Below are positions 9,001 through 15,000 of a DNA stretch of 64,000 bases, piece by piece; within the stretch, counting starts at the first letter, position 1; every line of letters begins with the position of its first letter. The stretch covers positions 2,094 through 66,093 of the forward strand of contig CAZJVY010000002.1 in assembly GCA_964549395.1 (NCBI GenBank), in the 5' to 3' direction. Source of the DNA: an uncultured Armatimonadia bacterium. Lineage in GTDB: Bacteria > Armatimonadota > Zipacnadia > Zipacnadales > UBA11051. The position numbers were made by a program.

Positions 9001-12000
9001 GCCGGGTACCGCTCATAGATATCGTGAGCCATCCCGACACTTTGCGACCCCTGGCCGGGACAGATGAAGGCGCGCATTTGCTAGTGACCGAACTCCTCGC
9101 GGATCGCTTTGGTCAGTGCAGGGACTACCTCGAACAGATCGCCGACTATGCCGAAGTGTGCGACCTCAAAGATCGGCGCTGAGGGGTCATTGTTGATGGC
9201 GACGATACAGTCCGATGAGCCCATGCCTGCCAGGTGCTGTACGGCTCCCGATATGCCGCAGGCGATATAGAGCTTGGGGTGAACAGTCTTCCCGGTCTGG
9301 CCAACTTGATGGTACGCCGGAATCCAGCCAGCGTCAACGGTCGCGCGTGAGGCGCCGACTGCACCGCCGATGGCGTCAGCCAGCTCGCGGATCAGTGCGA
9401 AATTCTCAGGCGCTTTCAGGCCGCGACCGCCAGAGACGATGATGTCGGCGTCCTGCAGGTTCGAGGCAGCGTCATTGCTTTCCCTGATGACCTCTATTAC
9501 CTTCGTCAGGACGCTATCCTCGTTGACATGCACCGGCACCTCAATGACTCTCGCCGTTCTGCTTTCGTCGGGTGTCGGCTTCTGGAACACACGCGGCCGC
9601 ACCGTTGACATCTGCGGGCGGGCGTGGCGGCAGACGATGGTAGCCATGATGTTGCCGCCGAAAGCAGGGCGCGTCTGGTAGAGCAGCCGCTCATCCTTGT
9701 CTATGTCCAAACCGGTGCAGTCGGCGGTTAAGCCTGCGCTGATGCGAGCGGCGATCCGCGAGGCAAGGTCCCGGCCCATGCCGGTTGCGCCGATAAGCAC
9801 AATCTCCGGTTTGTACTTGTTGATTATGCCGGTGATGACGTCCGTGTAGGGCCCCGTGCGGTACTGCGCGAGCTCGGGAGCCTGCGCTAGATACACATTG
9901 TCCGCGCCGTGGGCTGCGGCGACTTGCACCAACTCGGCGACGTTGTGCCCCACCAGCACGAGGCTGAGTTCGACACCCAGGTCGTCGGCCAGCTTGCGGC
10001 CCTCGCCGAGCAATTCCATGGCGACATCGGCCAGATGCCCGTGGGTCACCTCGGCAACTACCCACACGCCCTCGTATTGCGAGGTGTCAATGTCACACAC
10101 CTCAATGCGTTCCACCTTGATGGCGCCGAACTTGCAGCTTGTCACGCATGCGCCACACTGGGTGCAGTCGTCGGTGAATACGGCCTTTCCATCCACCATC
10201 TCGATGGCGCCATAGGGGCACGCATTGATGCAAAGCTTGCAGCCCTTACATTCCTCAGGAACTATGTAGATCGGCATGGACTTAAGTCCTCCGGCAATTC
10301 TCAATGCGTGGTCGCGGAACGCCTTGGCGGCGACTATAGCACCTGTGCTTCGCGGAGCTTGTCTATCAGCATCTTGACCTTCTCCTCGGCGGTTTCCCCT
10401 GTGATGATCTCGCCCTCAACGGTCCGGGTCGGAGAAAAGACCTTGATCACGCTTGTGGGGGAGCCGTCGAGGCCGCAGCGATTCGGTTGTGCAGATACGC
10501 AGTCACACGTCCAGGTCTCGATCTCAACCTTTTTGGCCTTCATGCGGCTCTTAAGGCCGGGCATGCGCGGCTCGTTGAGTTGCTTGACTGCGGTAACGAG
10601 GCACGGCAACTTGGCGCGCACGACCTCGAACCCGTCGGACAACAACCTCCGGACCTGGATCTCCTTGTCTGTCACCTCTTCGATGGCTATCGCGTAGGTG
10701 ATCTGCGGGATGCCCAGGTGCTCTGCCAGTCCGGGGCCGACTTGACCGGTATCGCCGTCGAATGCCTGCTTGCCGCAGAAGATGAGGTCGAAGTCGCCAA
10801 TCCTCTTTATGGCTTGCGAGAGGACATAAGATGTGGCGAGAGTGTCGGCGCCCGCGAAGGCGCGGTCACTGATCAGCAAGGCCCGGCCGGCGCCCATGGC
10901 TATCGTCTCACGCAGAGCCTGTTCGGCTTGCGGGGGGCCCATCGTGATGACTATGACCTCGCCGCCGTGCTCCTCGACTAGCTGCAAGGCCGCCTCGATG
11001 GCGTTCTCGTCGAATGGATTGATAATGCTGGGAACGCCGTCGCGGATGAGGGTGCCGGTCTCCGGGTTGATCTTGACTTCCGTCGTGTCCGGAACCTGTT
11101 TTATGCAGACGATTATCTTCATGGGAGTAGTCCTCCTGCGCACCGGTCTCGTCAGCATCGCTGACGGGCACGTGCCGACGTGGCCGGCCCTACACAGATA
11201 TGCTCGTCGCACGACCGCCCGCCGGCTAGGACGACTGGGCGTCCTTGAGCAGTTGGCCCGCTATGACCAGACGCTGGATTTCGGAAGTGCCTTCCACGAT
11301 CTCGAACAGCTTGGATTCGCGCATGTAGCGTTCCACCGGGTAGTCACAGCAGTAGCCGTAGCCGCCGTGGATCTGCACAGCCTTTGAGGTGACTTCCGCG
11401 CAGACCTCCGAGGTCTTGAGTTTGGCCATGGCCGCCTCTTTCTCAAATGGCAGCCCCTGGTCTTTGAGCCATGCGGCACGGTAGGTCAGCAGGCGACCGG
11501 CATCAATCTCCGTGGCCATGTTGGCGAGATGTAGCTGGACGAGTTGGAAGTTGGCGATCCGCTCTCCGAACTGCTCGCGGGTGATTGCATATTGGACAGC
11601 CGCATCATACGCCGCCTGGGAGAGGCCGACCGCGCCGATCGCCATGCCAATGCGGCCCACCCGCAGTGTTTCCATGGCCACCTGAAAGCCACGGCCTTCC
11701 TTGTGTAGGACGTTCTCCGCCGGCACGCGGCAATCGTTGAAGATCAGCTCGCGGTTCGACAGCGACTTGTACGCCATCTTCTCTTCGTTCTTGCCGAACT
11801 CGAAGCCGGGCATTCCCTTCTCCAGAATGAAGGCGGTGATGCCGCGCATACCGCGATCCGGCCTGCTATTGGCAATGATGACGTAAGTTCCCGCCTCGCC
11901 GCCGTTGGTGATGAATATCTTGGTGCCGTTGAGAACGTACTCATCGCCGTCCTTGATTGCGGTGGTTCGTACGGAGCCGGCGTCAGATCCGGCCATCGGC

Positions 12001-15000
12001 TCGGTCAAGCCGAATGCGCCGACGGAATCGCCGGTGGCCAAGGGCTTCAGGTATTTCTCCTTCTGCTCATCGGTGCCGAAGAACATGATCGGGTATTCGG
12101 CGAGCATATGCGCGCCATAGACCGCTCCCGTCGTGGTGCAGGCAGCCGACAACAGCTCTCCGATCACGGCCCATTCCAGAAAGCCGGCGCCCAAGCCACC
12201 ATACTCCTCGGGAACGGGTATCCCCATCAGGTCCATCTCTTTGAGCATCTTGACCTGATCCCATGGGTACTCATGCTTCTTGTCCACCTCGCCGGCAAAC
12301 GGCTTCAGCTTCTCGTCACAGAACTCCCTGACGTAGTCGAAAAGCTCATGTTGTTCTTCCGTGAACCCGAATTGCATTGGAAAGCTCCCTCCCTAATTGC
12401 AGAAAACGACCAGCGACGGAGGCCTGGCTCACTTCTCCCAGCGCAGTACCGCCCCGGCCAGGCAGAAACCGGCGCCAAATCCAACCAGTAATACAATATC
12501 GTCCGTTTTCAAGCGGCCGTCACGATATATCTCATCAAGGGCAAGGCCCATGGACGCTGATGACGTGTTGCCGTACTTGTGCAGGTTGCAGATGACTTTC
12601 TCTCGATCAATGCCCAGGCGGTCGGCAGCGGCGTCAAGAATGCGCAAATTGGCCTGGTGCATGATCACCCAGTCAACATCAGCCGCGGTGATGCCGGCTT
12701 GGGCAATGGCCTGTTGTGCAATGTCGGGGACGCCGCGCACAGCCATTTTGAATATCTCATGGCCGTTCATGTGGAGCTTCGTGGCATTCTGAGCCAGCGC
12801 CTTCTCATCAGGCGGCCAGGCGGAGCCGCTAGATGGCAAGCACAGGAACTCGCCGGCAAAGCCCTGGGTATTCATTGCGTAGGAGAGCAAGCCCTTGCCG
12901 GGCTCATCCGGCTGCAATACCGCCGCGGCCGCCCCGTCACCGAACAACACGCACGTGCTGCGGTCATCCCAGTTCGTCACGCGGGTCAACGCCTCTGAAG
13001 CCACCACCAACACATGGTCCAAGGCCCCGGTCTGGATGAACTGCGCGCCCGTTACCAGAGCGTCCACAAGCCCGGTGCATCCGGATACCAGATCGAAACT
13101 CGCGGCCCCCTGGGCGCCCAGCTTGTATTCCAGGATTGCGGAAGTGCTCGGGAATACCATGTCGGAGGTGACAGTAGCGACAATGATGAGCTGGATGTCC
13201 TCAGCCTGAATGCCCGCGTCCGCCAATGCCACTTTCGAGGCCGCTAGTGCCAGGTCAGAGCAGCTCTGGTCATCGGCCATAATGCGACGCTCTCGAATGC
13301 CCGTGTGGTTGACGATCCATTCGTCGGTCGTGTCAACTATCTTCTCCAGGTCGGCGTTAGTGAGGATCCGGTCCGGAACGTAGGAACCGAAGCCCCCGAT
13401 ACTGCATCCGCGTAGATTCATGGTGTTTTTCAGCCACTTCCCTGCACTGACAGACCGCAATAACTCATCCCCAGCATACCCACATCACGCTGGCCTGCCA
13501 ACTTAGCCGGTGCAGCAAGCGTGCCTCGGCACAGGTTCCTGATGTTGATCCATGGGGTGAGCGGGAACGAAACTACGAACACATTCACAACAACTCAGTC
13601 GGGCCACATGCCGAGCCGATGTTGTCACTAAGCGGCTGTCCGTCCGACAGCAGTTCGGCACGCCTCGGGACGGCAGAGAGCTGCTGCACCGAACGGCGCA
13701 TCTGCTCGATAATGTCATGTGCCACGGCATCGTGGGCTACTTGTATGGCCGTACAGACTGCCCTGCGGTCAGAGCGTCCGTGCCCGACCACGCATACGCC
13801 GTTGACGCCCAGTAGCAGCGCGCCACCGTACTCGGCCCAGTCGCAGCGCCTACGCAAATAGCGAAAGGCCGGCTTCATCAGCCAAGCGCCAAGCCGGCAG
13901 AATGTGCTCTGCGCAATCCCGGCCCTCATCGTATCAACCACAAACTGAACGCTTCCCTCAAAGACCTTGAGCACCACATTTCCGACAAAGCCGTCAGCCA
14001 CTATCACGTCAACATCACCCTCGTGAATCGCATTCCCCTCGATATGGCCGACGAAATTGACGGGTGCAGTCTCCAGAAGCGGATGCGTAGCGTGAACCAG
14101 CGCATTGCCCTTATTCACCTCTTCACCGATGTTGAGGACCGCCACCCTCGGCCGGCGCAGCCCCAGGACATGCTCCGCATAGCAGCTACCCATGGTGGCG
14201 AATTGGAGGAGGTGTTCGGGCTTGCAGTCGGCATTGGCGCCCGCATCGAGGATGACCGTCCTGCCTGTCCTTGTCGGAATAAGGATGGCGATGGCAGGGC
14301 GACTGATGTCGGCGATATTCCGCAGTCGGGTTGTGGCCAGCGCCATGAAGGCGCCGCTATTACCAGCCGAGACGGCGGCCTGGGCCTCCCCCTGCTTAAC
14401 CATCTCTATGCACTCGGCCATAGAAGACGTACGGCCCCGCTGCAGTGCGGCGCGCGGGGTCTCGCTCATGCCAACTACGCCCTCGGAGTGCCTGATCGTG
14501 ACCCGGCCGACGGTGTTGCGGGTACCATCCCGTGCGCGCTGCAGCAACTCGTTCAGTCGGCTCTCGTCGCCGACCAGACATATCTCTGTATCAATGGTCT
14601 GGGCTGCGGCAAGCGCTCCAGGCACGATCTCCTGCGGGGCGTGGTCGCCACCCATTGCGTCCACAGCGATGCGCATACGAGCCCCTCAGCGGCTGCCAGA
14701 TTTGGCCTTATCTTTCTCTTTTACGGTGTGATCAACCTTGCGGCCCTTGTAGTAACCGCAAGCCCGGCAGGCGTTGTGCGGTGCCACCGGAGCTCCGCAC
14801 TTCGCACAGGTGACGACGGCAGCGTCCACGGGAAGGCTCTGGTGGTTGCGTCGCTTGTTGCTCCTGCTCTTCGAATGACGGCGTTTCGGTAGTGCCATGA
14901 CGTCTCTCCTCATGCTCGGCGTGTGCCAGCGACATGCCTAGCACATGCTGCGTACACAACTCAGAACCTATTCGTCCGACTGCGGCCAGAGCGCCCGCAA

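Follow-up and report, generated by a model that had tools for sequence, protein, structure and literature searches.

This study concerns a 64-kb stretch of DNA (hereafter the window) from the metagenome-assembled genome of an uncultured Armatimonadia bacterium (Armatimonadota, Zipacnadia), contig CAZJVY010000002.1, and in particular three adjacent genes, acd, etfB and etfA, which encode an acyl-CoA dehydrogenase (ACAD) family flavoprotein and the two subunits of an electron-transfer flavoprotein (Etf) and lie inside the operon for type II fatty-acid synthesis (FAS II). Gene identities were assigned from Pfam and NCBIfam profile matches, which confirm on the minus strand every gene named in a preliminary description of this DNA. 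Twelve closely spaced genes between 4827 and 15492 follow the order yceD-rpmF-plsX-fabH-acd-etfB-etfA-fabD-fabG-acpP-fabF-rnc (Table 1), and all of the fab genes exceed their curated equivalog cut-offs. A perfect sigma-70 consensus at 15577-15548 is likely the promoter of this operon, and there are no terminator-like sites on the minus strand within 4500-16500, so none is internal to the operon. The trio of acd, etfB and etfA shows no compositional anomaly. Neither an enoyl-ACP reductase (ENR; ACP, acyl carrier protein) nor fabZ was found in the operon or elsewhere in the window. The absence of both from the operon had been noted earlier; this is correct and extends to the window, but fabZ is present elsewhere in relatives' genomes.

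The junctions around the trio are compact. The fabH-acd gap is 51 nt, with the ribosome-binding site AGGGAGGGA preceding the acd ATG; the acd-etfB gap is 103 nt, with AGGAGG preceding the etfB ATG at 11122; and the etfB-etfA gap is 56 nt, with GGAGG preceding the etfA ATG at 10277, a start chosen on homology together with this ribosome-binding site. The longest open reading frames (ORFs) are too long by 30 codons for EtfB and by 9 for EtfA, and the gap of 29 nt previously given between etfB and etfA is correct for the longest ORF but not for the supported start. At the other end, the etfA/fabD junction reads TAG-CAA-ATG, which leaves exactly the 3 nt reported before between the etfA stop and the fabD start; the two genes are translationally coupled. 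The true start of fabH may lie about 13 codons inside its ORF; the fabH gene call at a related locus, L089, is 330 aa long.

Comparison of the three proteins against all solved structures places the ACAD closest to the butyryl-CoA dehydrogenase (Bcd) of Clostridioides difficile (5OL2_C; E 1.6e-119, 403 bits, 52% identity, 1 gap), with Acidaminococcus fermentans Bcd at 397 bits. CarC of the caffeyl-CoA reductase complex ranks only 13th (308 bits), so that by score ranking the window ACAD is not orthologous to CarC, and medium-chain (about 290 bits), isovaleryl- (about 276-289) and glutaryl-CoA dehydrogenases (244) likewise score well below the two Bcd proteins. The catalytic Glu is conserved in the motif VEGTSEIQ. 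In C. difficile Bcd, residues F155, E198, Y340, D345 and Y346 hold the swinging Etf domain on the dehydrogenase and T343 packs against the Etf alpha-FAD (FAD, flavin adenine dinucleotide), residue roles that we take from the structure paper (PMC5691135). The first five are conserved in the window ACAD, and at position T343 it has Cys where the clade consensus is Thr. Residues 343-344 of this protein (11349-11354) are in fact Cys-Cys (GYGYCCDYP) in place of the Thr-x of the clade.

Can such an enzyme act on a substrate carried by ACP? The ACAD fold can accept carrier-protein-bound substrates, as the precedents of the prolyl-ACP dehydrogenase 4IRN, MbtN and PigA/RedW show. The window ACAD is a non-member of these families, scoring below the cut-offs for MbtN (58 against 700 bits), PigA (248 against 500) and RedW (245 against 650), and 4IRN, MbtN and PigA are weak or distant matches of it. 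Fab-embedded ACADs are more acidic than other ACADs, but so, to the same degree, are the FabF, FabD and FabH proteins encoded beside them, and net charge is thus uninformative as a proxy for ACP docking. At the positions equivalent to Q95 and E99 of medium-chain acyl-CoA dehydrogenase, the window ACAD appeared to have Gly in both cases; the hand alignment behind this is uncertain, the positions vary within the clade, and we do not use them as evidence.

The two Etf subunits resemble those of bifurcating complexes. EtfA aligns over its full length, including the ferredoxin domain, with CarE (6FAH_A; E 1.3e-131, 53% identity, 1 gap), and EtfB with CarD (6FAH_B; E 1.2e-80, 274 bits, 52% identity). 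Further EtfB matches are C. difficile EtfB (266 bits) and A. fermentans EtfB (243), with human ETF-beta at only 111 bits. For EtfA, bifurcating Etfs score 309-442 bits against 159-171 for respiratory AMP-binding Etfs, and the latter (human and Paracoccus) reach less than half the score of the top matches. Residues 10-20 and 38-48 of EtfA hold two complete CxxCxxCxxxC motifs with eight Cys, in agreement with the ferredoxin motifs described earlier, in a domain that aligns to CarE residues 1-65. The Arg in TRPAFGGN aligns to R136 of C. difficile EtfA, which contacts N5 of the bifurcating beta-FAD (PMC5691135), and the Arg in SRATVDAGW aligns to the docking residue R243. The EtfB of Clostridium propionicum carries an insertion thought to block ferredoxin access, and its complex is reported to be non-bifurcating (PMC9232219). 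We judge this insertion to be absent here because the EtfB alignments are nearly gapless, with 2 gap positions against CarD and 4 against C. difficile EtfB. Judged by sequence, the trio combines an Etf of the bifurcating CarDE type with a dehydrogenase of the Bcd type. The possibility raised at the outset, that the ACAD might belong with catabolic isovaleryl- or butyryl-CoA dehydrogenases and its Etf simply feed quinone, is not supported: by scores against solved structures the nearest ACAD is bifurcating Bcd rather than an isovaleryl- or medium-chain dehydrogenase, and the Etf is of the second-FAD, bifurcating type resembling CarDE.

The arrangement is widely kept in relatives. Fetched loci were searched by tblastn with the twelve window proteins and checked against independent gene calls with precomputed Pfam matches. 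ACAD relatives at 66-100% identity number in the hundreds, and those that are named come from Armatimonadota metagenome-assembled genomes (MAGs), including Candidatus Zipacnadales. Among GTDB species representatives, ACADs of 64-87% identity all come from Armatimonadota, Zipacnadia, 'Armatimonadia' or a 'WS1'-labelled digester MAG, and the next ones, at 51% identity or less, belong to unrelated phyla. The identical 12-gene order was found in 13 complete loci and several partial ones, from Zipacnadia, 'Armatimonadia' and 'WS1'-labelled MAGs and from metagenomes, with no exceptions where the ACAD is at least 66% identical and the contig long enough; it persists down to 47-50% FabD and 66% ACAD identity. 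Beside the more distant ACADs (51% identity or less), neither fabH nor fabD was found in any of 65 loci. Because the order recurs in related loci and is missing from all 65 distant ones, the arrangement is not due to chance. Over the 13 complete operons, mean identity to the window is 80% for acpP, 76% for acd, 75% for etfA, 71% for fabG and 70% for etfB, compared with 67% for fabF, 65% for fabH, 60% for plsX and 55% for fabD. Since these values match those of the core FAS genes, the trio is old in this lineage of Armatimonadota and under purifying selection as strong as that on the core synthase; the fabH-acd-etfBA-fabD synteny is kept across deep divergence, and a recent insertion is not borne out. 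No crotonase, 3-hydroxybutyryl-CoA dehydrogenase or thiolase lies near the trio in any locus examined, and only one short-chain dehydrogenase/reductase (SDR) lies in or near the operon at every such locus. One locus initially taken as similar, L021, in which a 51% identical ACAD adjoins acpP-fabF-rnc, was rejected as a coincidence: around it lie genes for ribosomal proteins, a glyoxalase and FadL, and no etf genes.

The step catalysed by enoyl-ACP reductase sets the pace of fatty-acid synthesis in bacteria, and the enzyme has long served as a drug target. To our knowledge, the known ENRs are limited to the SDR type (FabI, FabL and FabV) and the FabK type, and weak FabK homologues are usually assigned to nitronate monooxygenase (NMO). 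For gene content we used the KEGG counts per MAG given by Carlton et al. 2023 in the paper describing the class Zipacnadia (PMC10290634, Supplementary Table 8); the part of this table covered comprises 47 of its 77 columns, 13 Hebobacteria and 34 Zipacnadia, and all counts that follow refer to these 34 Zipacnadia MAGs. FabI is annotated in 2 of the 34 and a FabK-like NMO in one, and fabK, fabL, fabV and fabA are not listed in the columns covered. The remaining enzymes are common, with fabZ in 32, fabH in 29, fabF in 28, fabD in 26 and fabG in all 34. A complete fabH/D/F/G/Z set occurs in 21 MAGs; 19 of them lack both fabI and NMO, and 17 of these 19 have acd, etfA and etfB. The ACAD (K00249) never exceeds one copy per MAG, exactly one each of acd, etfA and etfB is present in 13 of the 34, and all five MAGs without fabH are also without the ACAD (Fisher p = 8e-5), as expected for linked genes. 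One of the MAGs, Meg22_1012_Bin_300, corresponds to a locus of our own set (L014) with an ACAD 86% identical to that of the window, and is listed with no fabI or fixC and one copy each of fabZ, fabD, acd, etfA and etfB. The elongation cycle in these bacteria thus has initiating and elongating condensing enzymes, a ketoreductase and a dehydratase without a recognisable enoyl reductase, and the sole ACAD and, in many genomes, the sole Etf are encoded inside the fab operon. The gap in reductase genes noted in the operon is also seen in relatives of the same class, with almost no fabI and no fabK, fabL or fabV listed.

We propose, with a probability of roughly 60%, that the trio takes the place of FabI, FabK, FabL or FabV as the otherwise missing enoyl-ACP reductase of this lineage, with NADH as the driving reductant and a probable coupling to ferredoxin. 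This reading rests on the slot that the trio occupies in the operon, its conservation, the missing ENRs, its enoyl-reducing relatives and the precedent of ACADs that use ACP-bound substrates. The reductive direction is favoured because for Bcd-EtfAB, CarCDE and AcrABC, the closest characterised relatives, the physiological reaction is in each case the reduction of a trans-2-enoyl thioester. The suggestion of an Etf-dependent enoyl reductase, made in the preliminary description from the operon alone, thus gains support from synteny, enzyme type and class-level gene content. It is also possible, and we advance this part tentatively, that the trio represents a fifth, non-homologous and electron-bifurcating class of bacterial enoyl-ACP reductase, in which 2 NADH would be oxidised and reduced ferredoxin made in each elongation cycle. 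The only Pfam domains in the trio are ACAD, ETF and Fer4, with no homology to the SDR or NMO folds; judged by these domains, the trio, if a reductase, would form a class non-homologous to FabI, FabL, FabV and FabK.

The mean of 3.5 K00059 fabG proteins per Zipacnadia MAG (range 1-9) gives reason to consider whether an ordinary ENR, such as a FabL-like SDR among the FabG paralogues, has escaped recognition, the trio then being an accessory that modifies a subset of acyl chains or balances NADH and ferredoxin. KEGG thresholds can mislabel SDRs, the MAGs are incomplete, and two of them hold both fabI and the ACAD. We nevertheless consider this explanation unlikely, since only a single SDR accompanies the operon at all loci examined, the trio is as conserved as the core FAS genes, neither fabI nor NMO is annotated in 19 of the 21 MAGs whose core set is complete, and no accessory chemistry of Bcd-Etf complexes is known.

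Another explanation is that the trio is a conventional butyryl-CoA dehydrogenase with its EtfAB, acting on short acyl-CoAs to yield butyryl-CoA or a similar short acyl-CoA, either as a fermentation step or in the supply of a primer for FabH, and co-expressed with the fab genes for that reason. The nearest characterised ACAD relatives do use CoA substrates, FabH is well established to take acyl-CoA primers, and thiolase and hbd are annotated in 15 and 6 of the 34 MAGs, respectively. However, crotonase KEGG orthologues are not listed in the columns covered, hbd is missing from 28 of the 34 MAGs, and none of these genes lies near the trio. Moreover, primer supply would not require conservation equal to that of the core FAS genes, and the enoyl-ACP reductase gap would stay unexplained. 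We therefore regard a conventional role as quite unlikely.

The same table bears on whether the complex might run oxidatively, dehydrogenating acyl-ACP or acyl-CoA, so as to introduce a FabX-like trans-2 unsaturation for the anaerobic synthesis of unsaturated fatty acids or to channel exogenous fatty acids into degradation, with its electrons confurcated together with those of reduced ferredoxin onto NAD+. Both fabA and fabB are absent from the Zipacnadia columns covered, which leaves the route to unsaturated fatty acids unaccounted for; bifurcating Etf complexes are reversible (PMC9232219); and FabX of H. pylori is a flavoenzyme that dehydrogenates acyl-ACP (PMC8626469). Against this, there is no isomerase partner, elongation would still be without a reductase, and fadA (0 of 34), fadB and crotonase, the genes for beta-oxidation, are not found in the columns covered, so that we consider an oxidative role very unlikely. 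Electron-transfer flavoprotein dehydrogenase and Rnf are likewise absent from these columns, and fixC occurs in 8 MAGs, 7 of which have extra etf gene copies. The dedicated link between fatty-acid synthesis and beta-oxidation that had been offered as a second possibility is accordingly disfavoured, there being no fadA, crotonase or ETF-quinone oxidoreductase in the part of the table covered.

Several observations weigh against the trio as the missing enoyl-ACP reductase. No feature of the ACAD sequence was found that favours ACP over CoA or long chains over C4. The best NCBIfam matches of all three proteins, each below its cut-off, are AcrABC of C. propionicum, which belong to the complex reported to be non-bifurcating (PMC9232219), and the trio could instead be a plain NADH-dependent reductase like this acryloyl-CoA reductase complex. 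The evidence that known reductases are absent comes from KEGG assignments to relatives' incomplete MAGs, within the 47 of 77 columns covered, rather than from the genome of the window itself; any of the 1-9 FabG-like SDRs per MAG could be an unrecognised FabL-like reductase, and fabI and the ACAD co-occur in two Zipacnadia MAGs. In two loci, L088 and L093, the trio lies outside the fab operon, beside GCHY-1, Ldh/Mdh and metallo-beta-lactamase genes, and in a third, L019, a lone 64% identical ACAD lies beside aroC and aroKB, a case that is uninformative. Because the trio stands alone in the first two and the ACAD alone in the third, embedding in the fab operon is not universal among related lineages.

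For the proposed enoyl-ACP reductase, a mechanism can be outlined by analogy with solved homologues; the reductive direction in vivo, ACP as the carrier, chains from C4 to C16-18 and bifurcation itself are inferred. The beta-FAD, which lies between EtfB and EtfA, would accept a hydride from NADH. One electron would then reach the delta-FAD of the ACAD by way of the alpha-FAD, which is carried by the swinging domain II of EtfA, and the second, low-potential electron would pass to ferredoxin via the pair of [4Fe-4S] clusters in the N-terminal domain of EtfA. After two such rounds the reduced delta-FAD would reduce the trans-2-enoyl thioester, with the conserved Glu as proton donor. The net reaction would be 2 NADH + 2 Fd(ox) + enoyl-ACP -> 2 NAD+ + 2 Fd(red) + acyl-ACP (Fd, ferredoxin). 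Reduced ferredoxin would have sinks in these organisms, because they have been described as fermenting anaerobes that possess hydrogenases and pyruvate:ferredoxin oxidoreductase.

It is useful to compare the trio with known systems. CarCDE of Acetobacterium woodii (6FAH), a bifurcating NADH:ferredoxin-coupled enoyl-thioester reductase, has the same gene order of ACAD, EtfB and EtfA and the same N-terminal 2x[4Fe-4S] domain in EtfA, in addition to the identities of 53% and 52% noted above for the Etf subunits. It differs in that the window ACAD is nearer to Bcd than to CarC, that its genes lie in a caffeate-respiration operon rather than a FAS II operon, and that its substrate is caffeyl-CoA, whereas that of the trio would be enoyl-ACP. 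The Bcd/EtfAB complexes of C. difficile and A. fermentans (5OL2, 4KPU and 4L1F) share with the trio the ACAD type, an FAD-binding type of EtfB, the catalytic Glu, the ACAD docking residues and the two EtfA arginines at R136 and R243. However, the EtfA proteins of these two species have no ferredoxin domain, and their genes form crt-bcd-etfBA-hbd butyrate operons, while here crt and hbd are not neighbours and are largely missing from the genomes. AcrABC of C. propionicum is also an NADH-dependent reductive ACAD-Etf complex, but it carries the insertion in EtfB, which is absent here, and the ferredoxin domain is present here. A different kind of likeness is found in FabK of Streptococcus, Enterococcus and Clostridia, an FMN flavoprotein (enoyl-ACP reductase II) that carries out the reaction proposed for the trio and whose gene occupies the same operon slot, after fabH and directly before fabD-fabG; in Enterococcus and streptococci fabK lies between fabH and fabD (PMC3791895). 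There is no homology between them: FabK is a single TIM-barrel protein of the NMO family that uses NADH directly, while the system proposed here would have three subunits, three FADs and two Fe-S clusters. Our searches of the full-text literature returned no paper in which an ACAD/ETF complex is proposed as an enoyl-ACP reductase, and ACAD or ETF enzymes are not mentioned in a review of bacterial ENR diversity from 2022. The machinery is of a known kind, a bifurcating ACAD-Etf complex, and it is the proposed role and the genomic setting that are new.

Table 1. Positions and supporting evidence for the features of the fab operon in the 64-kb window
Feature	Position	Strand	Evidence or remark
Predicted sigma-70-type promoter, TTGACA-18-TATAAT, 12/12 consensus	15548..15577	-	upstream of yceD
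yceD (DUF177, large-subunit rRNA accumulation protein), operon gene 1	14968..15492	-	Pfam PF02620, E 5e-27; same position in relatives
rpmF (ribosomal protein L32)	14686..14913	-	tblastn 54-73% to relatives' genes annotated PF01783
plsX phosphate acyltransferase	13585..14676	-	TIGR00182, 358 bits vs cut-off 243
fabH beta-ketoacyl-ACP synthase III	12429..13460	-	NF006829, 392 bits vs cut-off 249
acd, Bcd-type acyl-CoA dehydrogenase family flavoprotein, 383 aa; proposed delta-FAD subunit for enoyl-thioester reduction	11226..12377	-	Pfam ACAD N, M, C domains
etfB, bifurcating type, 262 aa from M31 of ORF; putative site of NADH and beta-FAD	10334..11122 (ORF to 11212)	-	structure-match ranking
etfA, 398 aa, N-terminal ferredoxin domain	9081..10277 (ORF to 10304)	-	full-length CarE match
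EtfA ferredoxin domain, two CxxCxxCxxxC motifs	10083..10277	-	Pfam Fer4 family matches; CarE alignment
fabD malonyl-CoA:ACP transacylase	8154..9077	-	TIGR00128, 306 bits vs cut-off 261
fabG 3-oxoacyl-ACP reductase	7377..8123	-	TIGR01830, 325 bits vs cut-off 298
acpP acyl carrier protein	7043..7279	-	TIGR00517, 106 bits vs cut-off 70
fabF beta-ketoacyl-ACP synthase II	5656..6921	-	TIGR03150, 554 bits vs cut-off 494
rnc ribonuclease III, final gene of conserved block	4827..5597	-	TIGR02191, 232 bits vs cut-off 166

Some further features of these loci deserve mention. At the head of the operon, a 252-aa ORF at 15236-15994 on the minus strand, with no Pfam match, overlaps the yceD ORF in a different frame. 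The promoter consensus falls within this ORF, the gene calls of L089 place a 238-aa protein and then a shorter YceD in the same region, so that the upstream ORF is only putative and the start given here for yceD provisional. Where the trio stands alone, at L088 (6921-11191) and L093 (7001-10742), its neighbourhood is conserved in a related lineage, and a gene is inserted within it, for a Ser/Thr kinase in L088 and a 23S rRNA-IVP-like protein in L093. In one sub-lineage a gene for an S-adenosylmethionine-dependent methyltransferase lies between acpP and fabF (L001, 15469-16281; L085/L086, 13449-14282), an insertion that may point to methyl-branched or otherwise modified acyl chains. Two tandem copies of acpP occur in the fab operons of L013 (about 15041 and 15337) and L016 (about 12952 and 13321), both from Zipacnadia/Armatimonadota MAGs. 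In L092 (9240-10455 and 13079-13486), a long-read ENA contig, the gene caller splits or truncates both etfA and fabF, and etfA is separated from fabD by a gene for a GNAT acetyltransferase; frameshift errors or genuine decay may be the cause.

Elsewhere in the window, an Arn-like cluster for aminoarabinose-type lipid modification lies on the plus strand at 47033-55701. It consists, in order, of a PMT_2 glycosyltransferase (ArnT-like), a DegT aminotransferase (ArnB-like), a GT2 enzyme (ArnC-like), a formyltransferase and an NAD epimerase/dehydratase as separate genes corresponding to the two halves of ArnA, and a polysaccharide deacetylase (ArnD-like); next come a response regulator and a histidine kinase, arranged much like PmrAB. 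The region 19753-28195 is a polysaccharide-degradation neighbourhood that encodes an esterase of the SASA family, a CBM/FG-GAP/beta-propeller protein of 1413 aa and a heparinase II/III-like protein, which fits the glycan-degrading lifestyle reported for Armatimonadota. Large ORFs of 415-1344 aa without a Pfam match at E <= 1e-5 lie at 2265-4784 (minus strand), 17100-19673 (plus), 42057-46927 and 59145-63179 (plus), and one such ORF, of 839 aa, is directly downstream of rnc.

If the trio is indeed an enoyl-ACP reductase, it would fill the 'missing ENR' gap for a whole class of uncultured bacteria and add a non-homologous class to the known ENRs. It would also explain the incomplete fatty-acid synthesis scores that genome-based pathway tools return for these lineages. 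Flavin-based electron bifurcation would then extend from catabolism to lipid anabolism, the complex being the first bifurcating enzyme there, and an anabolic housekeeping pathway would serve anaerobic Armatimonadota as an energy-conserving source of low-potential electrons.

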